Shown: piece after piece, positions 11,659-59,054 of the stretch | Layout: each line of letters opens with the position of its first letter | How positions within the stretch are numbered: position 1 is the first letter of the stretch | Source of the DNA: Vicinamibacterales bacterium | Lineage (GTDB): Bacteria; Acidobacteriota; Vicinamibacteria; Vicinamibacterales; UBA2999 | Assembly: GCA_036274155.1 (NCBI GenBank) | Contig: DASUGH010000158.1 | Span: 16,017 to 80,016 of the forward strand | Reading direction: 5' to 3' | DNA length: 64,000 nt | Translations under genes and position numbers: made by a program | Notes under the pieces: model-generated | What the model was told of the DNA's origin: nothing | The model's database searches: none | What the model saw: the letters and a program-made list of their open reading frames with translations, nothing else

Positions 11659-13002
11659 CTATACGGCAAAGAGGTCCTCGACCTGCCCGGTGCTGTCCAT
11701 GAACGAGTCCAGGTGCACCCCCACACGATCGAGCAGCGTGAGATGGAGGTTGGCCAGGTTCGTTCCCTTCTCGTAGCGAATGTGCCGGCCGCCCTTCAGG
11801 CCCGCCGCTGCGCCGCCCGCGACCAGAATCGGCAGGTTCTCGTGATCGTGAGTACTCGAATTCCCGATGCCGCTTCCGTACAGGTAGACCGAGTGATCGA
11901 GAAGGGAGCCGTCGCCGTCCGGCGTGGCCTTCATTCTCTGGAGGAAATCGGTGAACAGCGACAGATGGAACGTGTTGATCTTGGCGATCTTCGCCAGCTT
12001 CTCCGGATCGCCGCCGTGGTGGCTCGTCGGGTGATGCGGGTCTGCCACGCCGATCTCGGGATACGTGCGGTTGTTCTGCTCGCGCGTGAACTGGAACGTG
12101 ACCACGCGGGTGACGTCCGCCTGGAACGCCAGAATCTGCAGGTCGTACATGATCTTCGCGTGGTCGGCGAATGCGGCGGGGACCCCGACAGGTCTTTCGA
12201 GATCGGGCATCGTGTCGTCTGCGGCGGCCTTCTCGCCCCGCTCGATCTCGTGTTCCACCTCACGAACGCTCTCGAGATACTGATCCAGCCGTGCGCGGTC
12301 GGCGGCACCTACCCGCTGCTTCAGCCTGGCAATGTTGCCGGTGAACGAATCGAGAAGGCTGGCCCGATCCTGCAATGCCGCACGGCGCGTCGCCGCATTC
12401 CCGCCTTCTCCAAAGAGCCGTTCGAAGACCACACGCGGATGCGCCTCGGACGGAAGCGGCGTCGTCGGCGATGACCATGACAGGCAGTTCTGATAGACGC
12501 ACGCGTAACCGTTGTTGCAGACGCCGGCCAGCGGGTTCAGATCCATCGCGAGTTGCAGTGAGGCCAGTTGCGTCTCGCGGCCCATCTCCCTGGCAGCGAT
12601 CTGGTCGACGGTGATGCCCAGGTAGTAATCCGAGCTCTCGGTGTGTTTGGCGGGCGCCGCGCTCAGGAAGGACGCGTTGGACGTGTCGTGCGTGCCCGGA
12701 TAGGCGTTCTGGAGACGCATATTGGTGAGCACCGTCACATGATCCTTGACAGGCTCGAGCGGCGCCAGAATCGGAGAAAGCTCACCGAGTGTTCCCTGAC
12801 CGGGTGGAGTCCAGCGGGCCTGATCGCAGCCCATCGGGATGAACACGAAGCCGAGCCGGCGCACCGGTTTTGCGGCGGTTTGCGCCCAGGCCGTGCCCGC
12901 CGGAATCATGGCGTCGAGTAACGGCAACGCGAGCGCAGCCCCTCCGCCCTTCAGCACCGTGCGCCGGGGAATCGCCTTCTTCGTGAGAAACATCGCGCTC
13001 AC
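11659..13002 (-). CDS. DUF1552 domain protein with twin-arginine signal
   Basis: N-terminus MSAMFLTKKAIPRRTVLKGGGAALALPLLDAM (Tat-like RR). The C-terminal ...SSTHDHENLPILVAGGAAAGLKGGRHIRY... is typical of the DUF1552 family. Confidence 0.88.
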   Translation of the reverse strand: MSAMFLTKKAIPRRTVLKGGGAALALPLLDAMIPAGTAWAQTAAKPVRRLGFVFIPMGCDQARWTPPGQGTLGELSPILAPLEPVKDHVTVLTNMRLQNAYPGTHDTSNASFLSAAPAKHTESSDYYLGITVDQIAAREMGRETQLASLQLAMDLNPLAGVCNNGYACVYQNCLSWSSPTTPLPSEAHPRVVFERLFGEGGNAATRRAALQDRASLLDSFTGNIARLKQRVGAADRARLDQYLESVREVEHEIERGEKAAADDTMPDLERPVGVPAAFADHAKIMYDLQILAFQADVTRVVTFQFTREQNNRTYPEIGVADPHHPTSHHGGDPEKLAKIAKINTFHLSLFTDFLQRMKATPDGDGSLLDHSVYLYGSGIGNSSTHDHENLPILVAGGAAAGLKGGRHIRYEKGTNLANLHLTLLDRVGVHLDSFMDSTGQVEDLFAV

Positions 13003-13010
13003 CTTTCTCT

Positions 13011-13059
13011 ACTAATCAAGGGCGCTGCCCTTGATACCCCGTCCGCGCCCTTGATTAGT
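13011..13059 (-). promoter_or_regulatory. Three-arm palindrome between the DUF1592 and DUF1552 genes
   Basis: ACTAATCAAGGGCG (13011-13024) is the perfect reverse complement of CGCCCTTGATTAGT (13046-13059). Its core ATCAAGGGC (13015-13023) also pairs perfectly with GCCCTTGAT (13027-13035, 3-nt loop). The element ends 8 nt before the AGAGAAAGG RBS region of the 13002 start. Confidence 0.55.
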
Positions 13060-13074
13060 CGACAGCGTCTCTTG

Positions 13075-13130
13075 GCCGCGCTCCGCGCGGCGGCCCGTGA
13101 TGCGGACTCGCTCGGGGCCGCATCACGGGC
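13075..13130 (-). other. Two further perfect stem-loops in the same intercistronic spacer
   Basis: GCCGCGC-tcc-GCGCGGC (13075-13091, 7 bp) and GCCCGTGATGCGG-N12-CCGCATCACGGGC (13093-13130, 13 bp). The second contains the DUF1592 stop codon (13123-13125). No U-tract follows either. Confidence 0.55.
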
Positions 13131-15549
13131 TGATGCTCGCTGTCTTGCCGGGTGCAGGGTCTTTCTTCAATTCAGCGCGGCGCATCTGAAACGGTGCGCT
13201 CTTCACGATCCCGAGAATCAGCGACGAGAAGCGATATCCATCTTTTCCGGCATCCTTCACAATCCTGCGAACAGCAGGCGCATCGTAGTACTCCACGCCT
13301 CGGCCGAGAGCGAACGTCATCAGGTTTTCGGTCAAAGCCGTGACAAACAGTTCCGGTCGCGCCAGGAGCGCGTTTTCCAGTCCGTCGACGCCGCGAAATT
13401 CTCCTCCACCCGGCACGGAGCCAGTCGCGTCGACGATGTTTCCATCGACCTCGACGTCGCGCCACTGCCCGATGGCGTCGAAATTTTCGAGCGCGAAGCC
13501 AACCGGGTCGATCGAGCGGTGACAGGTCGCGCACGCGGCGTTATCGCGATGAACAGCCAGGCGCTGGCGCATCGACAGATTGGCGGACATCTTGCTCTCG
13601 TCGAGCGCCGGCACATTCGGAGGCGGCGACGGCGGTGGAGCACCGAGCAGATTGCGAAGCACCAGGACACCGCGAAGAACGGGCGACGTCCGTGTCGCGT
13701 AGGACGTCACAGACAGCACGCTGCCCTGCCGCAGCAGCCCTCCGCGTTTGCTGTCGGGAGCGAGCACCACGCGCCGGAACCGGCTGCCGTAGACGCCGGG
13801 AATCCCGTAGTGCCTGGCGAGCCGCTCATTGAGGAACGTGTAGTCCGACCGGATGAACGTCAGGACGCTGCGATCCTCCCGCACGACGCTGTCGAAGAAC
13901 ATCTCGGTTTCCTGGCGCAGCGCCTGGCGCAGATTGTCGTCGAAGTCGCGGAACAGGTTCGCGTTCGGCGATACGCCGTCGATGTTGCGGAGCCGCAGCC
14001 ACTGCCCGGCGAAATTCGTGGCGAGATTCACGGTGCGGCGGTCACCGAGCAGCCTCCGCACCTGCTTCTCGAGCTCGGCCGGCTGGCTCAGTTTCCCGCG
14101 AATCGCCGACTCGAGCAGTTCATCGTCCGGGATGCTGCTCCACAGGAAGAACGACAGTCGCGACGCCAGTTCGAGATCGCTGATCCGGTAGACGCCACTC
14201 GCCGGCATCTTCCTGGGGTCGCTTTCCACGCGGAGCAGGAACTCCGGATTGGCCAGGATGGCACTCAGCGCTGTGGTGATTCCGGTCTCGAAATCGCCAT
14301 CGGTGCGCGCTTTGCGATAGAAAGCCATCGGGCCTTCCAGGTCGGCCTTCGCCACCGGCCGGCGATAGGCGCGGCGCATCACCACCGACAGGATGGATGC
14401 CGCGCAAGCGGCGTCCTCCGTGGCCTGCCCCGTTGGCTTGCACGTGAACAACCGGCGGCGGCTCGGCGTATCGCCGGCGCCGCGCGGCGCATAAGGTCCC
14501 GCAATCGACAGCTGGGCGACCGCCGGCACGCTGCGCGGATGCCGCCGGTCGTTGAAACGCGATTCGGTTGGCTGCCGGAGCGTATCGATCAGCGACGAGC
14601 CTTCTTGTACGAAGGTGACACTGACGTCGTGCGGACCTGCGGTTATGGGAAGGCGCACCTTCAAGTCTCTGTCGGCCTGCGTGTCGTCGCCGTTCGCGGT
14701 CCTCTGGACGGTGAACGTCTTGACCGGCTCCCGGTCGATGAGCACGAGCAGCTGGTGCGTCCGGCGCTCCCGCAAACCGCTGACGACGCCTTCCAGATTG
14801 CGGGCCAGCATGATCTGGATGTCGTAGTCGCCGTCCTGAGCGAACGTGTGCAGGGTCGACATCCCGCCTCGCGTGCCGAGAGGCATTCCCGGAAGCTGAT
14901 CTTCCTGTGTGAGATCGGCGGCGACGCTGACGGTGTCGCTCTCCACGGACGACTGCGCACTCCCCACCGCCAGCCGGCTGATTTTCTGCGCCGCACTGAT
15001 GTAGCGGTTCAGCAGCGTCGGCGAGAGGTCGCCGACCGTGACGTTGTCGAAGCCGTGACCGCTCTCGTCGGCAGGCAGAAGCGCGGCGGCGTCGATGTCG
15101 AGCGCCAGCAGGTCGCGGATCGCGTTCTGATACTCGGTTCGATTCAGGCGCCGCAGCGTCTCCGTGCGCCCTGGATTCGGTTGTGCCGCCGACGCTGCAT
15201 CGAGCGACGTTTCGAGGAACGTCACAAGCGTCAGGCGATCGGCCTCGGACGGCTGCGGCATGTTCGCGGGGGGCATGACGCCCGTACGCACCTTGCGGAC
15301 AACCTTCTCCCACAGTTCCGGGTGTGCACCAGGCTTCGACACGTCGGCTTGAACCAGGTTCAGGTCGGCCGTCTTCAGTCGTTCGTTGTGGCACCCTGCG
15401 CAATATCGATCGAGAAACTGACGCTGCGGCGCAGGAGCAGGTCCGGCGGGCGCTTGCGCTGACAACCCCGGCGTGAGAAACGTCTGTGTCGCGACGAATC
15501 CGGCGAGAGCCACCGTTAGCATTGCAGAGGTCGACACCGGCTGCGTCAT
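13123..15549 (-). CDS. DUF1592/DUF1595/DUF1587/DUF1588/DUF1585-type multidomain protein with cytochrome-c-like CxxCH motifs
   Basis: Signal peptide. DRYCAGCHNERLKTADLNL (planctomycete-cytochrome-C-type) and NAACATCHRSIDPVGFALENFDAIGQWR motifs. Length of 808 aa and pairing with DUF1552 are typical. Confidence 0.88.
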   Translation of the reverse strand: MTQPVSTSAMLTVALAGFVATQTFLTPGLSAQAPAGPAPAPQRQFLDRYCAGCHNERLKTADLNLVQADVSKPGAHPELWEKVVRKVRTGVMPPANMPQPSEADRLTLVTFLETSLDAASAAQPNPGRTETLRRLNRTEYQNAIRDLLALDIDAAALLPADESGHGFDNVTVGDLSPTLLNRYISAAQKISRLAVGSAQSSVESDTVSVAADLTQEDQLPGMPLGTRGGMSTLHTFAQDGDYDIQIMLARNLEGVVSGLRERRTHQLLVLIDREPVKTFTVQRTANGDDTQADRDLKVRLPITAGPHDVSVTFVQEGSSLIDTLRQPTESRFNDRRHPRSVPAVAQLSIAGPYAPRGAGDTPSRRRLFTCKPTGQATEDAACAASILSVVMRRAYRRPVAKADLEGPMAFYRKARTDGDFETGITTALSAILANPEFLLRVESDPRKMPASGVYRISDLELASRLSFFLWSSIPDDELLESAIRGKLSQPAELEKQVRRLLGDRRTVNLATNFAGQWLRLRNIDGVSPNANLFRDFDDNLRQALRQETEMFFDSVVREDRSVLTFIRSDYTFLNERLARHYGIPGVYGSRFRRVVLAPDSKRGGLLRQGSVLSVTSYATRTSPVLRGVLVLRNLLGAPPPSPPPNVPALDESKMSANLSMRQRLAVHRDNAACATCHRSIDPVGFALENFDAIGQWRDVEVDGNIVDATGSVPGGGEFRGVDGLENALLARPELFVTALTENLMTFALGRGVEYYDAPAVRRIVKDAGKDGYRFSSLILGIVKSAPFQMRRAELKKDPAPGKTASISP

Positions 15550-15560
15550 CTGCCGCTTCC

Positions 15561-15599
15561 TCCGGACTGGAGGATCCTACTCCTGTCCGGAAGTCCGGA
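15561..15599 (-). promoter_or_regulatory. Leader stem-loop overlapping the Shine-Dalgarno of the DUF1592 gene
   Basis: In mRNA sense: UCCGGACAGGAG-uaggauc-CUCCAGUCCGGA (15591->15561), 11 bp plus one A.A mismatch. Its 3' arm runs into GGAGGAAGCGGCAG-AUG. A second tandem copy of UCCGGAC (15599->15593) could pair alternatively. Confidence 0.5.
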
Positions 15600-28758: not shown

Positions 28759-29088
28759 ATGAAGAGTGAGCCGCCTGACCTGCTGCCCGGGACGCTTGAT
28801 CTCCTGATTCTCAAGACGCTCGCGCGCGGCGCGATGCACGGCTACGGCATCGCGCAGCATCTCAAGGCGGCCTCCCGCGACGTCCTGCAGGTGGGCGAGA
28901 GCTCGCTCTACCCGGCCCTGCAGCGTCTGCTGTTGAACGGATGGGTCACCGCGGAATGGGGGGCCTCCGAGAACAACCGCCGAGCCCGCTTTTACACGCT
29001 CACAGCGTTGGGCAGAAAGCGCCTCACCGCGGAGCGCCAGGAATTCGATCGCCTGGTGCTCGCGATTCAACAGGTGCTCGCGATCTAG
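28759..29088 (+). CDS. PadR-family transcriptional regulator (acidobacterial TIGR03433-like)
   Basis: LLPGTLDLLILKTLARGAMHGYGIAQHL...SLYPALQRLLLNGWVTAEWGASENNRRARFYTLTALGRKRL. 2 nt separate it from the next gene. Confidence 0.92.
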   Translation: MKSEPPDLLPGTLDLLILKTLARGAMHGYGIAQHLKAASRDVLQVGESSLYPALQRLLLNGWVTAEWGASENNRRARFYTLTALGRKRLTAERQEFDRLVLAIQQVLAI

Positions 29089-29090
29089 AC

Positions 29091-31676
29091 ATGGGCACCG
29101 TATTCCGCCGCCTCTGGTACTGGGTCCGTCAGCGCGAGATCGAATACGGGCTCGAGGAGGAGCTCGAGTTCCACCGCGCTCTCAAGCAGCAGGAGCTCGA
29201 GGCCGAAGGCCTCTCGCCCGAAGACGCGCGACTCACCGCGCGCCGCGAGCTCGGCAACGTGACGCGCGCGCGCGAGGATTCGCGCGCCGTCTGGATGTGG
29301 CCCTGGCTCGAAACCGTGTGGCACGATGCGCGCTACGCGCTGCGCGCCGTGCGTCGCCAGCCCGGCTTCGTCCTGCTCTCGGTGGTCGTCCTGGGCGTCG
29401 CCATCGGGCTGAACGCGAGTCTCTTCACGGTATTTGCCGCCGCGGCGCTGCGGCCGATGACCGGCGTCGCCGAGCCGGCGACGCTGGTGGTGGTCTCCGG
29501 GCGTGTCCCGCAGATTCCGGACCTCCTTTCCGGCCTCTCCATTCCCGAGTTCGATGTCCTCGCCGCAGAGGCCACGACGGCTGAACTCGCGGCGGAACGG
29601 CGAATGCCGGTACGGTTCGATTCTGGCGGTGGCGCGCGGGACATGACGGCTGCTTTCGTCACCGGCAACTACTTCGAGCTGCTCGGTGTCCACATGGAGC
29701 ACGGTCGCGGTGTTCTCGCGGACGAAGACACGCGCGGCGCATCAGTGCCTGTGGCTGTCCTGAGCTATTCGCTCTGGTACACGCAATTCGGAGCGGACCC
29801 GGCCATCGTCGGAAGAACGGTTCGCGTGGCCGGGCAGCCTCATACGGTCATCGGCGTCACCTCGCGCGCGTTCGCCGGCAGTGAGCGCTCGCGAGTATGG
29901 CTCCCGCTCGCGTCGTTGCCGGTGCTGCGCCCAGGCAATACGGGGCTGGACCGCCCTCAGGACTGCTGCGCCGAGGTCTACGCGCGTCTGCGGCCGGGCG
30001 CAACGCGCGCGCAGGTGGCGACGGAGCTCCAGACGTTGAGCGATCGCTTCCGTCGGACGGTGGGACAGGACGTCCGGCCGATCGTGCTGACCGGCACGCA
30101 GGCGCTCAGGGGACGCCGCGGCGACAACCAGAGCCTGGCCATCATCGGCGTGCTCTTCCTCGGCATCATGATGGTGCTGCTGCTCGCGTGTGCGAATGTC
30201 GGAAACCTGCTGCTGGCGCGCGCCGCCACCCGACGCGGAGAGATCGGCGTTCGTCTTTCGCTGGGAGCAGCACGATCGCGCGTCGTCCGGCAGCTGTTGA
30301 CCGAGGGGTTGATCCTGGTGCTGATCGCGGCCGCTGCGGGGCTGGCGATCGCGGCGTGGCTGCCGCGCTTCGTTATGAATACAGTCGCACGGCAGCCTGC
30401 GCCGTTCGATATCGGTCCCGACGGACTCGTCTTCGCGTACACGGCGGCGATCGCGGGTATCGCGTGCCTGGCGGCGGCGCTGGCGCCGGCGCTTCACGCG
30501 ACGCGTGGCGGTATCACCGCGACGCTGAAAGGCGACGCGCTCAGCCGGTCGCGCGTGCCGCTGCGCAGCCTGCTGCTCGGCGTACAGCTGGCCCTGACGG
30601 TCGTGTTGCTGACCAGCGCCGGTCTGCTGCTTCGCGGCGTTGCCGCGGCGCGTGAGCTGGATCTCGGATTCCGCGTCGAGGGCGTCTCAGAGGTGGCCGT
30701 CGAGCTGCCGGAGCCGGACTACGACGCGGAAAGAATGCGGACTTTCCTGGCCGACTTGTCGACGGCCCTGCAGTCGGCTGGATTGACGTCCGTGGCGTTC
30801 GCGGCGCCTGGACGCGCCACTGACGAGGCCAGGTTGCCTGGCCGGGGCGCAAACCAGACCAGCCCTGTCGAGCGGCTGGACGTATCGTCCTCGTACTTCG
30901 CTCTGTTGGATGTGCCGATGACGGCGGGTCGGAGCTTCACTGACCGCGACCGGAATCCCGGTGCCGCGGTCGTCAACGAAACGTTCGCGCGCCGATTCTG
31001 GCCCGGTGAAAACGCGGTCGGCCGCTCGTTCGTCGCAGAGAATCGCACCCTCGAAGTCATCGGGGTCGTTCGCGATGCGAGGGTGCTGGGCCTGGACCCG
31101 GTGCCACCGAGCTATTTCGTTCCCCTTACTGGACCGCGAGGCACGCTATTTCCGGTGCTCCTTCTGCGATCGAACCAGCCCTCGGAAGCTGCCGCGGTCA
31201 CCGCGGTGGTCGAACGACTCGAGCCTCGCGGACGCGTCACGGTGACCCCGATGCGCAATCGGTTCGATTTCGAGCTCGCGGAGCTCGCGCTCGCTCCGCT
31301 GGCCGCATCGGTGCTGGGGCTCTTCGCACTTGGTCTGGCGACCGTTGGCATGTTTGGCGCGTTTGCCTACGCGGTGCGTCAGCGCACTCGCGAGATCGGT
31401 ATCCGACTCGCCCTGGGCGCACGGTCTGCCGATGTCGTCCGCAGCATCCTTTCAGGCAATGCTCGCGTCGTCGCGCTGGGACTCGGCGTCGGCCTTCTGG
31501 GCGCCGCCGCCGTATCGCAGATCCTGCGAAGCCTGCTCTTCGGCCTCAGCCCGCTCGATCCGCTGACGTACGCAGGCGTCGCTCTGCTGCTTGCGGCGGT
31601 CGCGTTCGTGGCCAGCTACGCTCCGACCCGGATCGCACTGCGCGTCGATGCCGCAACGACACTGCGCGCCGAGTAA
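29091..31676 (+). CDS. ADOP-family duplicated ABC-type permease
   Basis: ATG at 29091. The prefix RRLWYWVRQREIEYGLEEELEFHRALKQQELEAEGLSPEDARLTARRELGNVTRAREDSR is typical of PadR-linked permeases. Then duplicated MacB-like/FtsX halves. Confidence 0.9.
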   Translation: MGTVFRRLWYWVRQREIEYGLEEELEFHRALKQQELEAEGLSPEDARLTARRELGNVTRAREDSRAVWMWPWLETVWHDARYALRAVRRQPGFVLLSVVVLGVAIGLNASLFTVFAAAALRPMTGVAEPATLVVVSGRVPQIPDLLSGLSIPEFDVLAAEATTAELAAERRMPVRFDSGGGARDMTAAFVTGNYFELLGVHMEHGRGVLADEDTRGASVPVAVLSYSLWYTQFGADPAIVGRTVRVAGQPHTVIGVTSRAFAGSERSRVWLPLASLPVLRPGNTGLDRPQDCCAEVYARLRPGATRAQVATELQTLSDRFRRTVGQDVRPIVLTGTQALRGRRGDNQSLAIIGVLFLGIMMVLLLACANVGNLLLARAATRRGEIGVRLSLGAARSRVVRQLLTEGLILVLIAAAAGLAIAAWLPRFVMNTVARQPAPFDIGPDGLVFAYTAAIAGIACLAAALAPALHATRGGITATLKGDALSRSRVPLRSLLLGVQLALTVVLLTSAGLLLRGVAAARELDLGFRVEGVSEVAVELPEPDYDAERMRTFLADLSTALQSAGLTSVAFAAPGRATDEARLPGRGANQTSPVERLDVSSSYFALLDVPMTAGRSFTDRDRNPGAAVVNETFARRFWPGENAVGRSFVAENRTLEVIGVVRDARVLGLDPVPPSYFVPLTGPRGTLFPVLLLRSNQPSEAAAVTAVVERLEPRGRVTVTPMRNRFDFELAELALAPLAASVLGLFALGLATVGMFGAFAYAVRQRTREIGIRLALGARSADVVRSILSGNARVVALGLGVGLLGAAAVSQILRSLLFGLSPLDPLTYAGVALLLAAVAFVASYAPTRIALRVDAATTLRAE

Positions 31677-31789
31677 ACGCCGGCCCCTTGTGCGCGGTCG
31701 CGGGCGAACCGTCTCCTCACCCGAAAGAGGTGTTGTTCCGGCGACGGCGACGATCCCATAATCCGGCGCCAGCAGGGCGAGGAGGTCGG

Positions 31790-32712
31790 ATGCGGTCAGC
31801 CGTCGCGGGCGTTGTCGTTGCCGTCGTTGTTCTCGTCGCGGCCGGATGGCTGTTCCAGAACGCCATCACAGGCCGCTCCAGTGCGCGCCAGGCCGATCAG
31901 CCCGCGCGCACAGCGGATGGCAGGCCGGATCTGAACGGCATCTGGCAGGCGCTCAACACCGCCAACTTCGACATCCAGGCCCATGCCGCCAGGCCGGCTC
32001 AGGCGGTGATTCCGGCAGCGCCGCGCAGCGGAGTGGCAGGACTCGTTCGAGCCACACACGTGGAACTCCCGCACCCGTTGGTGCGGCCGCTCGGCGCCGT
32101 CGGCGGCGTTCCGGCCGGCGAGAGTGTCGTCGAGGGCGACGAGATCCCGTACCAGCCGTGGGCCGCCGCGAAGAAGAAGGAGAACGCCGAGCACTGGCTG
32201 GAGCGCGACCCCGAGATCAAGTGCTACATGCCGGGAGTACCGCGCGCGACCTACATGCCCTACCCGTTCCAGATCCTGCAGGGCACGAACACGATCGTGA
32301 TGGCATACGAGTTTGCCGGCGCCTCGCGCACGATTCACCTCGGCACGGTCTCCGACAGCCCGGCGCCGACGTGGATGGGATGGTCGCGCGGCCGCTGGGA
32401 AGGCGACTCGCTCGTCGTCGAGGTGACCGATTTCAACGAGGAGACCTGGTTCGACCGCGCCGGCAACTTCCACAGCGACCAGCTGCACGTCACCGAACGC
32501 TACACTCCGACGAGTGCAATCATCTGCTCTACGAGGCCACGATCACCGACCCGAACGTGTTCACGCGCCCGTGGTCGATCCGCATGCCGCTGTACCGGCG
32601 GCTCGAATCGGGCAAGAAGCTTCTCGAGTACAAGTGCGTGGAGTTCGTCGAGGAGTTGATGTACGGCCAGCGTGGCGTCGTCGATCCGGCGACCGGGCAG
32701 AAGAACAAGTAG
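31790..32712 (+). pseudogene. Uncharacterised secreted/anchored protein (paralogue family 'P'), interrupted by a frame change near 32505-32512
   Basis: GAGGAGG RBS and ATG at 31790. Frame A reads to ...LHVTERYTPT. The conserved C-terminus NHLLYEATITDPNVFTRPWSIRMPLYRRLE...EYKCVEF continues in the -1 frame to the stop at 32712. The paralogue at 32728 has the same order in one frame. Confidence 0.65.
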
Positions 32713-32727
32713 ACGGAGGGCTGCCAC

Positions 32728-33771
32728 ATGAACGCCCGCTATCCGGTCCTGATGCTCGCGCTCGCGGCGGCCGTTGGCGCCGCCATCGCGACGAGCGGAG
32801 CACTTCCAATCGCCATGACTGCGGAGCCGGACTCCACCGCTTCGTCGTGGAAGCAGACGACGCCCTGGGGTGATCCCGATCTGCAGGGTGTGTGGCGGTA
32901 CGAGGCCGCCATCCCGCTCGAGCGACCGGCGCGCTTCCAGGGACGCGAGTCGCTCACCGACGAGGAGCTCGAAGAGAGTCAGCGAATCGAGGACGAACAG
33001 GCCAGGCAACGTCTGGCGGGAGCGGAAGGCGCCGCCGTCGGCCGGCGATCGGTCGCCGAGTCGCCGATCCGCGGGAACGAGTACAACAGCTTCTGGCAGG
33101 ACCACGGACGGCCGCGGCAGGTCCTCCGACAGACATCTCTCATCGTCGATCCGAAGGACGGCCGGCTTCCATACACGTCAGACGCCAGGAAAGCGGAGGC
33201 GCGAGCCAGCGCCCGCTACGGCGTCGGGCCGTACGAGTCCTACCTCGATCCCGATACTGGCGAGCGCTGTCTCACGGACGGCGTCACGGCACTGATGTGG
33301 CAGGGGCCTAACGGAGGACACAACCGGATCGTGCAGAGCCCTGGCTACGTCACCATCCTCCATGAGGAGTATCTCGACCGGCGCATCATCCCGACCGACG
33401 GACGACGCCACGGCAGCATCCGGCAGTGGTTCGGCGATGCCGTCGGCAGGTGGGAAGGCTCGACCCTCGTCGTCGACACCACCATCAATTTCATCGATCG
33501 AACGAATTACGAGTGGGCGGCGATTTTCACGCGGCCGTCGGAGACGCTGCACATCGTCGAGCGCTTCACTCGCACGGGCGCTGACGCGATGGAGTACCGC
33601 ATCACCGTGGAAGATCCAGCGACGTTCGACAAGCCGTGGACGGCGGTGATTCCGATCACGCGGCTGAACGAAGGCACACAGATCTACGAGTACGCGTGCC
33701 ACGAGGGCAACTACGCGATGACGAACCTGCTGGCAGGCGGGCGTGCCGACGCGGCGAAGCGATCACGGTGA
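32728..33771 (+). CDS. Uncharacterised secreted protein (paralogue family 'P')
   Basis: Signal peptide. Conserved blocks are GERC...NRIVQSPGYVTILHEEYLDRRIIPTDGRRH...GDAVGRWEGSTLVVDTT...LHIVERFTRT...EYRITVEDPATFDKPWTAVIPI...YEYACHEGN. Confidence 0.8.
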   Translation: MNARYPVLMLALAAAVGAAIATSGALPIAMTAEPDSTASSWKQTTPWGDPDLQGVWRYEAAIPLERPARFQGRESLTDEELEESQRIEDEQARQRLAGAEGAAVGRRSVAESPIRGNEYNSFWQDHGRPRQVLRQTSLIVDPKDGRLPYTSDARKAEARASARYGVGPYESYLDPDTGERCLTDGVTALMWQGPNGGHNRIVQSPGYVTILHEEYLDRRIIPTDGRRHGSIRQWFGDAVGRWEGSTLVVDTTINFIDRTNYEWAAIFTRPSETLHIVERFTRTGADAMEYRITVEDPATFDKPWTAVIPITRLNEGTQIYEYACHEGNYAMTNLLAGGRADAAKRSR

Positions 33772-33775
33772 ACTC

Positions 33776-34204
33776 ATGCACAGACATTTCATGATCCTGT
33801 TCGTCGTAAGCGTCGTCTCGTTGCCCGCGGCGCTCCGCGCACACCATGCCTTCGCTGCGGAGTTCGACGCCAGCAGGCCGTTCAAGATTCGCGGCACCGT
33901 CGTCAAGATGGAGTGGATCAACCCGCACACGTGGCTGCACCTGGATGTGAAGCGGCCCGACGGCAAGACCGAGCGCTGGATGATCGAGGGCGGCCCGCCG
34001 AACGCGCTCTACCGTCGCGGGTTCACGAAGAACTCGCTCCCGCAAGGCGCCGAACTCGTCGTCGAGGGGTTTCGTGCCAAAGACGGGTCGCTCAAGGGCA
34101 ACGGCCGCGAGCTGACATTCGCGGACGGCAGGCGGCTGTTCGTCGGATCGTCGGGCACCGGCGCGCCCAACGACGGCAAGGAACCGCAGGGCGGCAAGGA
34201 ATAG
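33776..34204 (+). CDS. Small secreted protein, DUF6152-like, predicted mature N-terminus His-His
   Basis: MHRHFMILFVVSVVSLPAALRA|HHAFAAEFD..., followed by the WINPHTWL motif. It is a paralogue of 56572-56967. Confidence 0.75.
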   Translation: MHRHFMILFVVSVVSLPAALRAHHAFAAEFDASRPFKIRGTVVKMEWINPHTWLHLDVKRPDGKTERWMIEGGPPNALYRRGFTKNSLPQGAELVVEGFRAKDGSLKGNGRELTFADGRRLFVGSSGTGAPNDGKEPQGGKE

Positions 34205-36147: not shown

Positions 36148-36417
36148 TCAGCCGCCTTCGACCGCAGACACGATGTCGATCTGATCGCCGGGCTCCACCG
36201 GGGTCCCGATTTCGCCCACGCCGAGCTGGCGGTCGTTCAGGAACACCACCATGACCGGGTTCAGCGCGCCGTCCTTCGCCCAGACGAGCGGCATCAGAGG
36301 GGGATGTCGATCGGTGAGTGCCCGGAGCGCCGACTCGACCGTCGTGGCCAGCACGTCAACGGAGTTGACGCCGCCGATGCGCTCGGCGAAGAGGTTCGTG
36401 AAGCGGATCCGGGGCAT
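36148..36417 (-). CDS. MoaD/ThiS-family ubiquitin-like sulfur-carrier protein (C-terminal Gly-Gly)
   Basis: 89 aa ending ...PGDQIDIVSAVEGG*. The beta-grasp-length protein lies immediately downstream of the AOR gene. Confidence 0.85.
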   Translation of the reverse strand: MPRIRFTNLFAERIGGVNSVDVLATTVESALRALTDRHPPLMPLVWAKDGALNPVMVVFLNDRQLGVGEIGTPVEPGDQIDIVSAVEGG

Positions 36418-36447
36418 GAAACAACCGTGGGAGTCGCGACGAAGGCG

Positions 36448-38286
36448 TCAGGACGGCGAGGCCTCTGCCATCTCCTCGATTTCCCTGTCGAACACCGCCC
36501 AGACCCGCTCGCTCAGCTGCGAGAAGAACTCGCGCGTCACGAACGGCGGAACGCCCAGGTTGGGGTTCGGGCGGTCGAACACCTCCGACGGCAGCGTGTA
36601 GTCCGATCGATCGTACCCCTGCTTGCGCTCGAGCCACAACGCGCGGACGAAGGCGCGCCGCACGGCAGCCAGCAGCTCCGCTGACGTCGCCTCGAACCCG
36701 CTCTCATGCTTCAGCGCCTCGACGACGTGGTCGGCGCTGACGCCGGCGAACTTGCACAGGCCGAGCAGGTCGTCGCGCACGAAGTACAAGCCGCGTTCAG
36801 TAATCAGCTTCGCCCAATAGTCGAGCGAGGTGTTGCCCTCGAGCGCCAGCGCCATGTAGGTGGCCATCGACATGTGTCCGCCGGCGATCGCCCACGGATA
36901 GCCCGGGTTCGTATCGGGCTGGTAGGCGGGGAACTCCATGCCCTTGCTGTGCATCGCATACCCGGTCTCCCCGAGCTTCTCCGACAGCCGCTTCACGCCG
37001 CGGCCCACCTCGGGAAACCGCCCCGTGGCAGCGCCCTCGATGAGCTCGCGCGCCTTGTCGAAGTCGCCAAAGGTCGCGCCGTTCAGAATCGGCGCGTCCG
37101 GATGCCGCTGGTTGTAGTCCATCACGTACGAGATCGTCGTGCCCAGCGAGATGTTGTCCATCCCGAGGTGGTCGACCAGGCTGATGAGCGCGGCAGCCTT
37201 GCGCGGATCGTGAATCGCGATGTTGGTCGACAGGAGGTTCACCGGCTCATAGTCGAACTTGGCCAGAAAAGCGCCGCGCGTCCCGTCGGCGTTCTTCTCG
37301 TACACGTTCTTGTGGCAGTTGATGCCGCAGCGGAAGCACGACTCGGCCTTGACGACGAACTGCGGCTGGACGTGGTCGCGGAACATCAGCTCGGGCTTGC
37401 CGTCGCCCGTGGGCCGGAAGTTGTTCTGCGGGACGAAGTGGAACTTTTCGAGCGGCTCGTAGTTCGACCAGGTCCCGCCGAGCCCTCCCTTGTCCTTCTC
37501 GCGGAATTTGCGCGATCCGGGGCCGGTCGACGCCGCCTTGTTGATGTCGCGGATCTCCGGCTTCAGCTTGGCGATGCGGTCTGGCGTCTGCGCGACGATC
37601 GCCAGCACGCGCTTGTACCCCATGACGGCGCCCATGCCACCACGGCCGGCCCACCGGCACTTGTCGTCGCCCGACCTGAGCTGGTTTTCGGTGCTGAGCG
37701 CCACCGCCGCCATGTAGCAATCCTCGTAGTGCTCGCCGGCGGGACCGATCACCGCGAAGTGCGCGTCGGCGTATCGATCGCGCAGCCACATGATCTTGTC
37801 GTGGCAGGCGAGCCCGAGCAGATCGCCTGCGGGCTCGAACCCAATCTGCGGACCTTGCTCGCTGTGACGGATCACCAGGTACACCGGCACGTCGGCCCGG
37901 CCTTCCAGAATCATCTCGTCGAGCCCGGTCCATTTGAGCTTCGGGCCGAACTTGCAGCTGCCGGCCGACCACATCGCGGCGGGCAGGCCCTTGTTGGAAA
38001 TCTTGAGTGGGCTGTAGGCCGAGAAATACGTGCGCAGACCGGTCATGACGTTCGACGCCGTCAGCACACCGGTGTTGACGATGAGCGGATTGTCGGGCGT
38101 GAACGCGTGCGTGATGGTCCGCTCCGCCAGGATCTGGAACGATCGTCCGAATCCCCCCAGCACATCCTCGAGGTTCCGGCAGGGCACGTCTTCGACGCGG
38201 ACGTCCCGGGATGCCAGGTCGACGGTCGCACGCGTGTAGACGACCGCGCGAGGGTCGCTATGGGATCCGTTGAACGAGGTGCGCAT
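36448..38286 (-). CDS. aor: Aldehyde:ferredoxin oxidoreductase family (tungstopterin enzyme)
   Basis: N-terminal AFOR_N pattern ...VDLASRDVRVEDVPCRNLEDVLGGFGRSFQIL. FeS cysteines ESCFRCGINCHKNV. C-terminal AFOR_C region. 612 aa. Confidence 0.92.
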   Translation of the reverse strand: MRTSFNGSHSDPRAVVYTRATVDLASRDVRVEDVPCRNLEDVLGGFGRSFQILAERTITHAFTPDNPLIVNTGVLTASNVMTGLRTYFSAYSPLKISNKGLPAAMWSAGSCKFGPKLKWTGLDEMILEGRADVPVYLVIRHSEQGPQIGFEPAGDLLGLACHDKIMWLRDRYADAHFAVIGPAGEHYEDCYMAAVALSTENQLRSGDDKCRWAGRGGMGAVMGYKRVLAIVAQTPDRIAKLKPEIRDINKAASTGPGSRKFREKDKGGLGGTWSNYEPLEKFHFVPQNNFRPTGDGKPELMFRDHVQPQFVVKAESCFRCGINCHKNVYEKNADGTRGAFLAKFDYEPVNLLSTNIAIHDPRKAAALISLVDHLGMDNISLGTTISYVMDYNQRHPDAPILNGATFGDFDKARELIEGAATGRFPEVGRGVKRLSEKLGETGYAMHSKGMEFPAYQPDTNPGYPWAIAGGHMSMATYMALALEGNTSLDYWAKLITERGLYFVRDDLLGLCKFAGVSADHVVEALKHESGFEATSAELLAAVRRAFVRALWLERKQGYDRSDYTLPSEVFDRPNPNLGVPPFVTREFFSQLSERVWAVFDREIEEMAEASPS

Positions 38287-54598: not shown

Positions 54599-56572
54599 AT
54601 GTTTAACGGCGCCCAGACGCGATTCGCGATACGCCCGCTGCTCCTCCTTGCGTGCGCCGCGGTGGCCAGTGTGCCTCTCTTCTCTCAGGGAGGCCCGGCG
54701 CGGGCCGGGAACGCGCCCGACATCTCCGGCGAATGGCGACTGGAGAACAGCGAGGACGACACCACCGCTCAGCCGCCGCTCGGTGATTACACCGGCATCC
54801 CCTTCAACGACGCAGGGCGTCTCAGATCCGACACGACGCCGGAATCGATCTGGGGAACGCCGGAGTATCAGTGCCGTCCGCATTCGGCGCCCCACCAGTG
54901 GCGGGGACTTGGCGGCGCGCGGATTCTCAAGGAGCAGGATCCGCTGACCCGCGACATCCGCGCGTATCACATCCAGTTCATGCGCTCGCTCGACCGTCCG
55001 GTCTTCATGGACGGACGTCCGCATCCGCCGGCATGGGCGCCACACAGCTGGACCGGTTTCTCGACCGGAGAATGGATCGGGAACACGCTCAAGATCACCA
55101 CGACCCACCTCAAGGACGGATATCTCAAGCGAGGCGGGCCGCAGACGAGCGACATGTACTCGATGACCGAGTTCCTCACGCGCCACGGCGACATCCTGAG
55201 CATCGTGACGGTCATCGACGATCCGATCTACATGGACGAGCCGTACGTCCATTCCACGACGTACGCCTACGATCCCACGGCAAGCGTCGCCCACGAGGTA
55301 TGCAACTCGTCGGCGTTCGCCGAGAATGGCGGCACCGACCGGCATTGGGTGCCGCATTTTCTTCCCGGAGAGAACAACGCCCGCAGCGAGTGGCTGAAGG
55401 ACGAGAACTGGTTCCCGCCGGAAGCGGCGCTCGGCGGCGTGCGGACGCTGTATCCGGAGTACCGAACGACACTGAACGGGACGGTTCGTCCGGACACGTT
55501 GAAGGTTCCCGCCTCGCGCTCGGCGCTGACCATCGACAAGCGGATCGCCGAACAGAGCCCGCGTGATGGCCAGGTGCACGTCCTTCCGGTTCAGGGCAAC
55601 ATCTACATGCTGGTCACCGACGGCACCAACGTCACGGTCTCCCTCGGTCCCGAGGGCGTGATGGTCGTGAACACCGGCCCGGCGCAGATGTCCGACAAAC
55701 TGCTGACCGCGATCAATCAGCTCGCGAACGCATCGGTGTTGCCGCCGACGACCAACAACTGCGCCGGCGTGTCGTGTCCGGGTGCGTGGGGCTGGTCGAG
55801 CCCCTATATGAATGCGGTGATCAGCTCCCCCGCGCCGCCGAAGCCAGTCCGCTACATCGTCAACACCAGCGCTTCGCCTGACAACGTGGGCGGAAACCTG
55901 AAGATCGCCACGTCAGGCTTCTTCCCGCGCGTGCAGGGGTTCGGCGCCGCCGTCGAAAGCGTCGGTCGCGGCGCCTCGATTGTGGCGCACGAGAACGTGC
56001 TCAACCGCATGACCGCCGCGCCGGCGGCGAAGCAGCCGGCAGTTCCCGCCGCCGCGCAGCCGACCGACACCTACTTCGACGAGTTCTTCAAGCTGCCGGC
56101 GTATGTCAACGGCGAAGCCGTAATCGTGTATTCCGCGGCGGCCGCCAACACCGACGGCGACAGTTTCGTGTTCTTCCGGCACTCCGAGGTGATTGCCGCC
56201 GGCGATCTCTACTCGACCGTCAGCTACCCGGTGATCGACGTCGCCAAGGGCGGCACGATCCAGGGTGTGATCGACGGCCTGAACAAGATCATCGATCTGG
56301 CGGTTCCCGAGTACCGGGCCCAGGGGGGCACGTGGGTCATCCCCGGGCGCGGCCGTCTCTCCGATACGGCCGACGTCGCCTCGTACCGCAACATGGTGAC
56401 GATGATGCGCGACCGCATCCGCGACCTGAAGTCGAAGGGCATGACGCTGCAGCAGGTAAAAGCGGCGCGGCCGACGCTCGATTTCGACGGCCGCTATGGC
56501 TCGACCACCGGTCCCTGGACCACCGACATGTTCGTCGAGGCTGTTTACCGCACCCTCCAGGAGAAGAAGTAA
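54599..56572 (+). CDS. Fusion of a family-'P' domain with a degenerate (ligand-less) MBL-fold domain, secreted
   Basis: ATG at 54599 and a signal peptide. The N-half has EYQC...DRPVFMDGRPH...GFSTGEWIGNTLKITTT...VIDDPIYMDEPY. The C-half has MBL topology, but HxHxDH reads SASPDN (IVNTSASPDNVGGN) and the GHG position reads GRG. Confidence 0.8.
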   Translation: MFNGAQTRFAIRPLLLLACAAVASVPLFSQGGPARAGNAPDISGEWRLENSEDDTTAQPPLGDYTGIPFNDAGRLRSDTTPESIWGTPEYQCRPHSAPHQWRGLGGARILKEQDPLTRDIRAYHIQFMRSLDRPVFMDGRPHPPAWAPHSWTGFSTGEWIGNTLKITTTHLKDGYLKRGGPQTSDMYSMTEFLTRHGDILSIVTVIDDPIYMDEPYVHSTTYAYDPTASVAHEVCNSSAFAENGGTDRHWVPHFLPGENNARSEWLKDENWFPPEAALGGVRTLYPEYRTTLNGTVRPDTLKVPASRSALTIDKRIAEQSPRDGQVHVLPVQGNIYMLVTDGTNVTVSLGPEGVMVVNTGPAQMSDKLLTAINQLANASVLPPTTNNCAGVSCPGAWGWSSPYMNAVISSPAPPKPVRYIVNTSASPDNVGGNLKIATSGFFPRVQGFGAAVESVGRGASIVAHENVLNRMTAAPAAKQPAVPAAAQPTDTYFDEFFKLPAYVNGEAVIVYSAAAANTDGDSFVFFRHSEVIAAGDLYSTVSYPVIDVAKGGTIQGVIDGLNKIIDLAVPEYRAQGGTWVIPGRGRLSDTADVASYRNMVTMMRDRIRDLKSKGMTLQQVKAARPTLDFDGRYGSTTGPWTTDMFVEAVYRTLQEKK

Positions 56573-56967
56573 TGCGTAGAGTGGCTTATCTCGTCGTCGG
56601 CGCGGCGGTGTTGGCAGGCACAGCGACGTACGCCCACCATTCGTACGCCGCAACATACGACGTGTCGACGGAAATCAAGCTGGACGGAAAGCTCGTGGCG
56701 TTCTCCTACCGCAATCCTCATTCGTTCGTGACCGTTCAGGCACCGGACAAGGACGGCGCGATGCAGCGCTGGTCCATCGAGTGGGCGGGCAGCGGCCAGC
56801 TCGCACAGGCCGGCGTCCAGCACGACACGCTCAAGGTCGGCGATGAGATCGTCGTCGTCGGTCGCCCGTCGCGCGTGCGCGGCGAATATCGCGCCCTGAT
56901 GGTCAGGCTGACCCGGCCGTCGGACGGCTTCAACTGGGGCGGACGTGCCGGACAGGTCGTTGACTAG
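56572..56967 (+). CDS. Small secreted protein, DUF6152-like, predicted mature N-terminus His-His
   Basis: The ATG overlaps the previous stop (TAATG). MRRVAYLVVGAAVLAGTATYA|HHSYAATYD..., followed by the YRNPHSFV motif. Confidence 0.75.
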   Translation: MRRVAYLVVGAAVLAGTATYAHHSYAATYDVSTEIKLDGKLVAFSYRNPHSFVTVQAPDKDGAMQRWSIEWAGSGQLAQAGVQHDTLKVGDEIVVVGRPSRVRGEYRALMVRLTRPSDGFNWGGRAGQVVD

Positions 56968-57724
56968 GACACCCGCTGCCCTCGTCGCAACCCTGGCGAT
57001 CGCCCTCGCTCTGCCGGCAGCCGTTCACGCTCAGCGCGGCGGACGCGGCGCGGGTGGAGGAGCGCCCGCCTCGGCGCGCACCGCTGCCGCGCTGGATCTC
57101 ACGGGCTACTGGGTGTCGGTGATCACCGAGGACTGGAAGTACCGGATGGTCACGCCCAAGAAGGGCGTGTTCGACGCCATTCCCCTCTCCGCGGAAGGCC
57201 GCAAGGTCGGTCAGGCGTGGGATCCCGCCCGCGACGAGGCCGCCGGTGAACAGTGCAAGGCGTACGGCGCGGCCGGCATCATGCGGATGCCGACGCGTCT
57301 GAACATCACCTGGGAGAACGACAACACCCTGCGCATCGACACCGACGCCGGAACTCAGTCGCGCCGGCTGTACTTCGGCAACGCGCCGGCGCCGGGAGAG
57401 CGGAGCTGGCAGGGCCACTCGGTTGCCGTGTGGGAGGCCGGCGCCGGCGGTGGTCGTGGCGCTCCACGGCAGGGGAATCTCAAGGTGGTGACCACCAACC
57501 TTCGGCCCGGCTACGTGCGCCGCAACGGCGCTCCGTACAGCGACAAGACCACCGTCACCGAGTACTTCGACGTCAACACGCTGCCAAATGGCGATCGCTG
57601 GATGACCGTGTTGGCGGAGGTCGAGGACCCGGTCTATCTGAGCCGCCGCTACATCACGACGTCGGACTTCAAGAAACTGCCAGACGCCACCGGGTGGGCG
57701 CCCACGCCCTGCTCGACGAAGTAA
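56945..57724 (+). CDS. Uncharacterised secreted protein (paralogue family 'P')
   Basis: Signal peptide ...AALVATLAIALALPAAVHAQ. GEQC...TRLNITWENDNTLRIDTDAGTQSRRLYF...WQGHSVAVWE...LKVVTT...VTEYF...EVEDPVYLSRRY. Start GTG 56945 or TTG 56960. Confidence 0.72.
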   Translation: MPDRSLTRTPAALVATLAIALALPAAVHAQRGGRGAGGGAPASARTAAALDLTGYWVSVITEDWKYRMVTPKKGVFDAIPLSAEGRKVGQAWDPARDEAAGEQCKAYGAAGIMRMPTRLNITWENDNTLRIDTDAGTQSRRLYFGNAPAPGERSWQGHSVAVWEAGAGGGRGAPRQGNLKVVTTNLRPGYVRRNGAPYSDKTTVTEYFDVNTLPNGDRWMTVLAEVEDPVYLSRRYITTSDFKKLPDATGWAPTPCSTK

Positions 57725-57730
57725 CAGCCC

Positions 57731-58945
57731 CTATCTGCTTCGATCGACGGCGACGCCGCGCAGGTAGACCGATGCGATCCTCCGTGTGTTCGTAATGTCG
57801 TCGAGCGGGTTGGCGTCGAGCACGATGAAGTCGGCGCTCTTGCCAGCCGCGATCGTGCCGGCATCCGCCATGCGCAGGAACTCCGCACCATTGCGCGTGG
57901 CGGCGACGAGAACCTGCATCGGCGTCATCCCGGCCGCCACCATGTCGGCCATTTCGACGTGTGGTGCCCACGGGGTGTTACCGTCGGAGCCGAGCGCGAT
58001 GCGCACGCCCGCCGCGTTCATCCGCGCCAGGTTCCTCGCCTGTACGCCGAACTGAGCCTGTGCGTCGGGGCGATCGGTGTTGCCCGCTTCCAGCTTCTGC
58101 AGTTCGGCCTGCGACAGGCTGCCCTTCAGCCAGCTCACATCAGTCTTGACGCCGCGATCGGGCAGGTTCGGCACGAGCACGAACGCCGGACGTGTCTTGA
58201 CCATCGCCATGAACTCGTCGTCGACATCGCGGTCGCGCACACCGTGTGCGAACGCGTCGATCCCGGCCTTCCATAAACCTTTCGCATCCTCCAGCGTGAA
58301 CAGATGGGCGGTTACGCGGAGGGAGTTCTTGTGTGCCTCGTCGATCACGGCACCGTACAGGTCCGGGGTGAGCTTCTTGTACTTCCCGTCGCGATCGTCG
58401 ACCCAGATCTTGACGATGTCGACCTTCTGCGCGGCCAGTTCCTGTACGGCCTTCCGGCCTTCGGCCGCGGTGGTAATCCAGTGCGGGGCGGTCGAGCGCC
58501 CCGGCTCCGGCGCGGTGATGCCGCGGCCGGCGGTGAAGAACCGTGCGGCGCCCGGAATCGTCTGGGCGCGCATCTGGAACGGCAGCTCGCCCAGGTCCTG
58601 CCCGAGGCTCATGGCAGCGCTGAGACCGTAGTAGGCGCGCCGGCGCAGATCCTGCGTGAGCGCTTCGCGCTCCTGGCTCAGATGCGTGTGCGTGTCGACG
58701 ATCGCGGGCATGACGGTCTTGCCTAGGAGACTCACGCGGGTGGCTCCGGCGGGAGCTTTCACATCCGCGGCGCGGCCGACCTGAGCGACACGCGGGCCGT
58801 CAACGACGATCGTGGCGTTCTCGATCGCCGCCCGTCCGTCTCCGACGATGACGCGTGCGCCTTCGAACACCGTCATCGCCGTCTGCGCACGATTCGAGAT
58901 GGACCACGCCGACACCACGAGCAGCACGAACAACACTCGTTTCAT
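57731..58945 (-). CDS. Secreted amidohydrolase-family metallo-hydrolase
   Basis: ATG at 58945 and a signal peptide. PAIVDTHTHL (HxH), VTAHL, AFAHGV and LGSDGNTPW, ending ...NTRRIASVYLRGVAV. Confidence 0.88.
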   Translation of the reverse strand: MKRVLFVLLVVSAWSISNRAQTAMTVFEGARVIVGDGRAAIENATIVVDGPRVAQVGRAADVKAPAGATRVSLLGKTVMPAIVDTHTHLSQEREALTQDLRRRAYYGLSAAMSLGQDLGELPFQMRAQTIPGAARFFTAGRGITAPEPGRSTAPHWITTAAEGRKAVQELAAQKVDIVKIWVDDRDGKYKKLTPDLYGAVIDEAHKNSLRVTAHLFTLEDAKGLWKAGIDAFAHGVRDRDVDDEFMAMVKTRPAFVLVPNLPDRGVKTDVSWLKGSLSQAELQKLEAGNTDRPDAQAQFGVQARNLARMNAAGVRIALGSDGNTPWAPHVEMADMVAAGMTPMQVLVAATRNGAEFLRMADAGTIAAGKSADFIVLDANPLDDITNTRRIASVYLRGVAVDRSR

Positions 58946-59054
58946 TGAGGCCTCCCGAGGACGATGCCAACAGAGAGAGACGATCATACGCCCTGGCAGG
59001 GGTATCCTACGCCCGGCTGCCCAGGCGGCGGATGGGAGCTGGAAGGACACGACA

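Follow-up and report, generated by a model that had tools for sequence, protein, structure and literature searches.

An operon widely conserved in soil Acidobacteria joins two proteins of a large unnamed superfamily to a DUF6152 protein

In a 64,000-nucleotide stretch of DNA from a Vicinamibacterales bacterium (the window), a self-contained operon consists of three genes, here called A, B and C. It is widely conserved in soil Acidobacteria, and its three products are predicted to be extracytoplasmic. Two of them, the products of A and B, belong to an unnamed superfamily, here called P, while C encodes a DUF6152 protein; a second copy of the module, D-E-F, lies at 54599–57724 (Table 1). Positions are window coordinates, and L-numbers are labels of the loci and contigs retrieved for comparison. 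A, B and C all lie on the plus strand. The stop codon of A (TAG, 32710–32712) is separated from the ATG of B at 32728 by a 15-nt gap that holds a GGAGG ribosome-binding site, and the stop codon of B (TGA, 33769–33771) is separated by 4 nt from the ATG of C at 33776, which ends with a TAG stop codon at 34204. The coordinates and the 15- and 4-nt spacing of three co-directional genes given in an earlier note on this DNA are thus borne out. Signal peptides and anchors of the module proteins were assigned by eye. A keeps an N-terminal hydrophobic stretch with no obvious cleavage site and is probably membrane-anchored, and B is secreted.

Table 1. Features of the two module copies in the window
Feature	Position	Strand	Evidence or remark
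Conserved upstream element, opening CTCACCCGAAAGAGGTGTTG	31716..31762	+	near-identical in the L002 orthologue
Gene A, short P-superfamily protein, ~307 aa after repair, hydrophobic N-terminal anchor	31790..32712	+	open reading frames (ORFs) in two frames
Gene B, long P-superfamily protein, 347 aa, signal peptide	32728..33771	+	>7,900 homologues, AlphaFold2 (AF2) model
Gene C, DUF6152, 142-aa precursor, signal peptide ending ..ALRA, predicted oligonucleotide/oligosaccharide-binding (OB) fold	33776..34204	+	PF19649
Gene D (copy 2), P-like N-terminal domain and putative degenerate metallo-beta-lactamase/SoxH-like domain	54599..56572	+	hhalign, TIGR04559
Gene E (copy 2), DUF6152, 131 aa, predicted mature start His-His	56572..56967	+	PF19649
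Gene F (copy 2), distant short P-superfamily protein, 259 aa	56945..57724	+	profile comparison

The ORFs of B and C are intact and 88–95% identical to their homologues. A is split over two frames, a point absent from the earlier note: the frame that opens at 31790 ends at 32659, and the conserved C-terminus lies in the frame that ends at 32712. DNA alignment with four orthologous genes reveals that one base is missing from A at about 32518–32519, in a short A run that reads GCA-ATC where GCAAAT is expected, while the orthologue in L002 is an intact protein of 306 aa. A programmed frameshift is ruled out, as the orthologues are single-frame; since they need no frameshift, the gap is either an assembly error or the mark of a recent pseudogene. 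If the frameshift is real, copy 1 would be decaying in this genome as a pseudogene-bearing remnant, and the deletion does change and truncate the last ~64 native residues, the second conserved cysteine included. We nevertheless consider decay improbable, because B and C are intact, the sequence of A is well conserved on both sides of the gap, and a gap at a short A run is typical of an assembly or sequencing error.

Sequence comparison shows A and B to be paralogues, as the earlier note held, and places them in one very large superfamily. Repaired A aligns with B at 31% identity over 158 aa (BLASTP E-value of 7e-19), and hhalign relates A to a profile built from 79 B-type sequences with a probability of 99.9%. 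More than 7,900 homologues of B were returned; all are annotated as hypothetical or left unnamed, and not one carries a functional name or a Pfam domain. P comprises 13,701 representatives at 50% identity (E ≤ 1e-3) and occurs in at least 588 places of reference genomes, mostly in Vicinamibacterales and Bryobacterales and some in Gammaproteobacteria. Iterated profile searches started separately from A, B, the N-terminal part of D, F, a fifth type found in L005 and a fusion protein all converge on one and the same set of ~235 ORFs. Scans of A, B, D and F against Pfam, NCBIfam and PADLOC gave nothing usable. In particular, A and B have no Pfam or NCBIfam match at E ≤ 1, no lipocalin, FABP or ZinT model matched them, and a profile search of the PDB with the B-type alignment found no sequence relative. 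The large proteins therefore fit no characterised family, as had been claimed, and a match is found only at the level of the fold.

The AF2 model of B has a predicted local distance difference test score (pLDDT) of 80.9 and a predicted template modelling (TM) score of 0.78, with the strands at residues 199–312 reaching pLDDT values of 87–97. A Foldseek search of the PDB with this model yields 19 matches at E ≤ 1e-3. The best are FABP/CRABP barrels, matched at an E-value of 1.6e-4, and the matches listed are almost all of this type, plus the related SAHS protein. The alignments to FABP/CRABP barrels span ~125 columns with target-normalised TM-scores of 0.43–0.52, a similarity at the fold level only. 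The core of P is thus modelled as a calycin (FABP/lipocalin)-like beta barrel. An N-terminal strand carries the motif P-D-[LI]-x-G-x-[WYF], in which the glycine is conserved in 112/113 and the aromatic residue in 113/113 of the sequences aligning there; the full pattern is found in 163 of the 215 unique P sequences compared. The motif resembles the G-x-W in the N-terminal strand that is a signature of calycins. In B-type proteins, the barrel is preceded by an additional region of ~150 residues and followed by a C-terminal helix opening with an invariant C-H-E-G-N, which reads YACHEGN in B. B itself has an N-terminal P-D-L-x-G-x-W strand, then a helical insert and the C-terminal barrel.

Across the same 215 sequences, in a numbering that runs from C181 to C324 for the residues named here, G236 is conserved in 100%, R219, E278 and D296 in 98%, C181, L247 and C324 in 97%, and W242 in 95%. 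The two near-invariant cysteines, C181 and C324, sit on either side of the barrel and probably form a disulfide that ties the C-terminal segment to it, which would fit an extracytoplasmic location.

The small protein C matches PF19649 with an E-value of 1.1e-32 (112.4 bits against a cut-off of 27), confirming a membership in DUF6152 that had previously been a guess. E matches the same model with an E-value of 5.5e-23 (81.3 bits) and has 1,971 homologues, some of which bear the JGI label 'YhcR', a label that also points to an OB fold. We compared 153 unique DUF6152 sequences with pairwise identities of 23–100%, counting positions 1 to 9 from the first histidine and numbering the others as in the C precursor. 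His1 (153/153) and His2 (152/153) are preceded by alanine at position −1 (149/153) and followed by phenylalanine or tyrosine at position 8 (153/153) and aspartate at position 9 (139/153). Further along, Pro50 is present in 153/153, His51 in 152/153 and Glu71 in 151/153. By the −3/−1 rule, signal peptidase is predicted to cut after Ala −1, and the mature protein would then start as NH2-His-His.

The AF2 model of DUF6152, built on a shallower alignment without the DUF6152 sequences derived from the loci, is of moderate confidence (pLDDT 65.8, core 70–83). Its topology, b1-b2-b3-short helix-b4-b5, is that of an OB fold, and the Foldseek matches listed are mostly OB folds, among them ModE/Mop, the anticodon-binding domain of lysyl-tRNA synthetase, SSB and CcmE. 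DUF6152 genes also occur in series. L169 has four in tandem at 3038–4815, each encoding AHHSFAMFD after the signal peptide and with no P gene nearby, and L150 has a similar arrangement.

The A-B-C order (~300 aa, ~345 aa, DUF6152) recurs with similarly tight gaps of 4–15 nt in four contigs, L001, L002, L003/L004 and L005/L006. The flanking genes differ among all four, and these orthologous operons have no conserved neighbour. In the window, the genes directly upstream of A encode PadR (28759–29088; TIGR03433 at 139 bits, cut-off 102) and an ADOP permease (29091–31676; TIGR03434 at 637 bits, cut-off 622), and from this the earlier note had implied a link. This link is not supported: the pair is absent upstream of all four orthologous operons, and a promoter-like element separates the ADOP gene from A. 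Co-regulation with PadR-ADOP is accordingly rejected, and the adjacency in the window is most likely incidental.

The promoter-like element consists of TTGTTC (31733–31738) and CATAAT (31757–31762) with an 18-nt spacer, and would act as a promoter. The upstream element also precedes A in L002, L003 and L005, and the CATAAT block is present in L003 and L005 despite their other upstream genes. Because a conserved element precedes A while the upstream genes differ, A-B-C is most likely its own transcription unit. A generic promoter and terminator scan was uninformative and did not call the TTGTTC/CATAAT element. A search for riboswitches and other Rfam RNA families came up empty, both over the entire window and for the region upstream of A. 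In the segment 31716–31735 and its equivalents in L002, L005 and L007, a hairpin of 4 bp could form; its arms read CACC...GGTG in the window and in L002, and TACC...GGTA in L005. The change in L005 looks compensatory, and the segment may belong to the −35 region or to a small leader element.

Beyond the operon itself, genes for P and DUF6152 are found together from both sides. Among 80 genome loci centred on P, about 20 have a DUF6152 gene within 6 kb, and about 11 hold A-type, B-type and DUF6152 genes together. On the DUF6152 side, a metagenome scan with three sequences of a different DUF6152 subfamily gave 49 genes with at least 1.2 kb of sequence on both sides. A P gene is adjacent to 36 of these 49 (22 on the same strand and 14 on the other); in 2/49 a P gene is not adjacent but lies within 1.2 kb, and 11/49 have none. 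The genes of the opposite-strand case L143 were checked and are real. Furthermore, the two families are fused in single ORFs that encode a signal peptide, AHH-DUF6152 and then a P barrel, twice in L007 and once in L019, and L101 and L155 are further candidates, in which one ORF matches both the DUF6152 and the P profiles. The pairing spans divergent subfamilies: C goes with A/B, E goes with D/F, and in the L005 type a 330-aa P protein is paired with a 157-aa DUF6152 protein. Fusion, together with adjacency across divergent subfamilies, is strong evidence that P and DUF6152 work together physically, and A, B and C would assemble into a complex at the periplasmic side of the membrane. The co-localisation of the two families in other genomes, proposed as a check in the earlier note, is strong and shows in four unrelated contexts, in the adjacency counts and in the fusions; none of the refuting conditions named in that note was borne out.

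The second copy of the module is genuine, as the earlier note had proposed, and is a separately conserved variant. E is a DUF6152 protein with 33% identity to C. Profile comparison places the N-terminal third of D, and F over its whole length, among the distant members of the P superfamily. Specifically, the N-terminal third of D matches the B-type profile with an hhalign probability of 91%. A BLASTP comparison of F with B found nothing, and a four-sequence F profile matches the B profile with an hhalign probability of 88% over 151 columns, with the Cys, W-x-G, T-E-[FY] and D-P landmarks in register. Iterated profiles seeded with A and with B reach D at 1e-31 and 1e-22, and F at 4e-30 and 3e-25, respectively. 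The order D-E-F is kept in L087, L088 and L089; D adjoins the DUF6152 gene in L087 and L088, and F comes after it in all three. L051, a gammaproteobacterial locus, carries the counterpart of D as two genes, with the C-terminal half as a gene of its own, and has a B-type gene after F. The C-terminal half of D (55500–56572) bears a faint likeness to SoxH and the metallo-beta-lactamases (TIGR04559, E-value of 4.6e-7, 29.5 bits where the cut-off is 280). At the position of the HxHxDH motif, D instead reads TSASPDNVGGN, and a PDB sequence search with D found no relative.

The genes around P and DUF6152 are described here as recurrence counts without a genome-wide background, not as enrichment. The commonest neighbour in P-centred loci is a homologue of pyrroloquinoline quinone (PQQ)-dependent dehydrogenases, of either the TIGR03075 or the TIGR03074 type, which in some cases includes a cytochrome c domain. 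Such a gene lies within 6 kb in 19/80 P loci and is directly adjacent and co-directional in about 10 (~12%), for example L019, L023, L065, L072, L076 and L078. In L047, L036, L072 and L079, a DUF1592 (cytochrome c) gene and a DUF1552 gene are followed by a B-type gene, and in L045 an NHL propeller gene is followed by an A-type and then a B-type gene. Cytochrome c proteins recur near P/DUF6152 loci. In addition, a conserved six-gene cluster recurs in six DUF6152-centred loci (L105, L140, L143, L146, L152 and L159), with the genes in the order P (−), two DUF6152 (+), P (−), two DUF6644, as at 3045–6982 of L143. The DUF6644 proteins are four-helix membrane proteins that weakly resemble CopD, DUF2214 and SirB.

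Several further observations concern these neighbours. A cytochrome c gene lies just upstream of the six-gene cluster in L143. PQQ alcohol-dehydrogenase-type neighbours of P at L023 6919–8622, L065 7648–9546 and L076 3209–5665 carry a D-x-D (DYD, DMD and DLD), which at that position we take to mark lanthanide-dependent enzymes, and they score well, below the cut-off, on TIGR04528 'acido-empty-quinoprotein'. The window itself has a DUF1592 (cytochrome c) and DUF1552 pair at 11662–15576 (−), as found directly upstream of B-type P genes in the four loci named above, and a gene for a secreted amidohydrolase at 57731–59098 (−), convergent with F; amidohydrolase homologues also lie within a few kb of P genes, some adjacent, in L024, L034, L061 and L067. 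From translations read by eye, an aldehyde:ferredoxin-oxidoreductase-like gene at 36148–38286 (−) is followed by a small MoaD/ThiS-like gene. A multicopper-oxidase-like gene, likewise recognised by eye (HxH), lies about 1 kb downstream of the P/DUF6152 cluster in L051 (7955–9448, −) and is a single case. TonB-dependent-receptor-like neighbours, present in 13 of about 80 loci, were set aside, on an estimate, as no more frequent than their abundance in Acidobacteria would give.

A histidine conserved directly after the signal peptide predicts metal binding (PMC12537917). That study demonstrated this by experiment for DUF4198 (Ni), DUF6702, and Ang-1 and Ang-2 (Cu), and the conservation of His1 across these families ranges from 65% to 100%, or 79–100% without DUF6702 (PMC12537917). 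Neither this paper nor its supplements mention DUF6152, and our literature searches returned no paper on DUF6152, on DUF6644, or on a histidine brace combined with an OB fold. DUF6152 shares with CopC, YcnI/DUF1775, DUF4198, DUF6702, Ang-1/Ang-2 and the lytic polysaccharide monooxygenases (LPMOs) an extracytoplasmic location, an invariant histidine directly after the signal peptide, further conserved histidines and carboxylates, and membrane (DUF6644 in some loci) and redox-enzyme neighbours. It differs from these families in having two consecutive invariant histidines rather than one and no detected sequence relation to them, and from LPMO, CopC, YcnI and Ang-1 in its predicted fold, an OB barrel rather than a beta-sandwich, Ig-like or cupredoxin-like domain. 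Small OB-fold domains are also found in CusF, which binds Cu(I)/Ag(I), CcmE, which binds heme, and Mop, which binds molybdate; CusF and CcmE are periplasmic, as DUF6152 would be. Membership of DUF6152 in the CusF family was rejected (hhalign probability 8.9%). Unlike CusF, DUF6152 has no conserved Met/Trp Cu(I) site. No methionine is conserved in its alignment, and its candidate ligands sit at the amino terminus and within the loop between b1 and b2.

On the P side, features in common with the calycins (FABP/CRABP, the bacterial lipocalin Blc, ZinT/YodA) are a G-x-W in an N-terminal strand, two conserved cysteines on either side of the barrel, a conserved arginine in a predicted barrel strand and, in the model, a core that may be an antiparallel up-and-down barrel of ~125 residues. 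ZinT is a calycin that handles metal in the periplasm and has a histidine-rich amino terminus. P departs from the calycins in that no Pfam lipocalin, FABP or ZinT model matches it, in the low TM-scores of 0.43–0.52 and in the extra N-terminal region and C-terminal CHEGN helix of its B-type members. By analogy, A-B-C may work like an N-terminal-His metal-binding system with a calycin partner, and it would be a member of no characterised family.

We tentatively favour a reading in which the three proteins form a periplasmic complex that combines metal chelation by the His-His terminus with barrels for a small ligand, or with barrels that receive the metal, and that serves redox enzymes. Specifically, a transition-metal ion would be chelated by the amino terminus of C, with His51, Glu71 and possibly Asp9 as further ligands, in a manner modelled on CopC, YcnI, DUF4198 and the 'anglerases'. 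The P barrels, with their conserved arginine, glutamate and aspartate, would hold a small ligand or take up the metal. In many lineages, the unit would then assist periplasmic redox enzymes as an accessory for metal-dependent binding or processing. An exposed His1, the bound metal and its identity, and the tie of A-B-C to redox enzymes are, like the complex and the disulfide, predictions of this proposal.

A number of observations weigh against it. The His-His segment of the DUF6152 model has a pLDDT below 50 in a model that reaches only 65.8 as a whole, none of the Foldseek matches of DUF6152 reaches an E-value of 1e-3, and no characterised homologue of the module proteins was found. About 60/80 P loci are without DUF6152 within 6 kb, most B-type genes standing alone, so P does not need DUF6152; conversely, the four-gene DUF6152 array of L169 is without P. 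The PQQ association is a minority pattern among P loci, no metal-responsive regulator, riboswitch or known metal transporter is conserved beside the A-B-C operon, and gene A is frameshifted in this window. Finally, each genome has many paralogues, and two modules lie in this 64-kb window alone, which is unusual for metal trafficking.

The last point also bears on a simpler view, in which DUF6152 captures Cu, Ni or Zn and passes it to the P barrel or to a permease, without any ligand chemistry, much as CopC does to CopD, YcnI to YcnJ, or anglerases serving HupE/UreJ. The invariant His-His amino terminus and the published precedent (PMC12537917) fit such a hand-off, as do the weakly CopD-like DUF6644 proteins of the 2+2+2 cluster in six loci. 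The tandem DUF6152 arrays without P look like sequestration, and together with the CopD-like partners they argue for simple metal supply. However, no permease or metal regulator is conserved beside A-B-C, and the near-invariant residues of P are arginine, glutamate and aspartate, not a set of His, Cys or Met. Many paralogous modules per genome and a very large, diverse P superfamily argue for substrate diversification over simple metal supply. We regard pure hand-off as unlikely.

The predicted barrel of P also suits a carrier that does without metal. Here P would shuttle a hydrophobic or anionic small molecule (a substrate, a product, a quinone or scavenged PQQ) to periplasmic enzymes, and DUF6152 would be an adaptor whose His-His serves protein contact or the ligation of heme or another cofactor. 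In FABPs, a buried arginine binds the carboxylate of the ligand, and P has a near-invariant arginine in a predicted strand of its FABP/CRABP-like barrel. P genes adjoin diverse periplasmic enzymes, namely PQQ dehydrogenases, DUF1592/DUF1552, an NHL propeller and an amidohydrolase, and CcmE offers the example of an OB-fold heme chaperone. Vicinamibacteria scavenge PQQ rather than synthesise it (PMC12124388). Against these points, the invariant His-His and the conserved histidine and glutamate are hard to explain without a metal, and there is no known ligand. PqqT, which is known to bind PQQ, is moreover a periplasmic binding protein, a class different from the P barrels. A metal-free carrier is, in our judgement, distinctly unlikely.

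A more speculative analogy starts from the LPMOs. In fungi, a PQQ-dependent pyranose dehydrogenase drives LPMO action (PMC5960967), and some P/DUF6152 loci resemble this pair in placing a PQQ enzyme beside an N-terminal-His protein. By this analogy, the module might represent a new class of periplasmic copper enzyme, in which a histidine-brace-like copper at the OB-fold His-His oxidises a small substrate held in the barrel and adjacent PQQ dehydrogenases or cytochromes c reduce the copper site; it would be a bacterial, non-polysaccharide analogue of the LPMO/PQQ-dehydrogenase pair that has diversified into numerous paralogues in soil Acidobacteria. The predicted fold of DUF6152 differs from that of LPMO, however, and a PQQ gene is adjacent in only ~12% of P loci. 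We consider a copper enzyme very unlikely, and tentatively keep to the combination of metal chelation and ligand-holding barrels set out above.

P is a very large superfamily that abounds in two dominant groups of soil bacteria, the Vicinamibacterales and the Bryobacterales, both of them poorly understood, yet it has remained unnamed, without a Pfam or NCBIfam model or a solved relative. Operon linkage and fusions point to P as the partner of DUF6152. In DUF6152, the conservation of His1 is stricter than in DUF4198 or DUF6702 and equals that of the two anglerase families, and if DUF6152 binds metal, it would provide a new OB-fold metal site. The links to PQQ dehydrogenases, cytochromes c and CopD-like proteins would tie the module to periplasmic oxidation or to the metal economy of soil bacteria.

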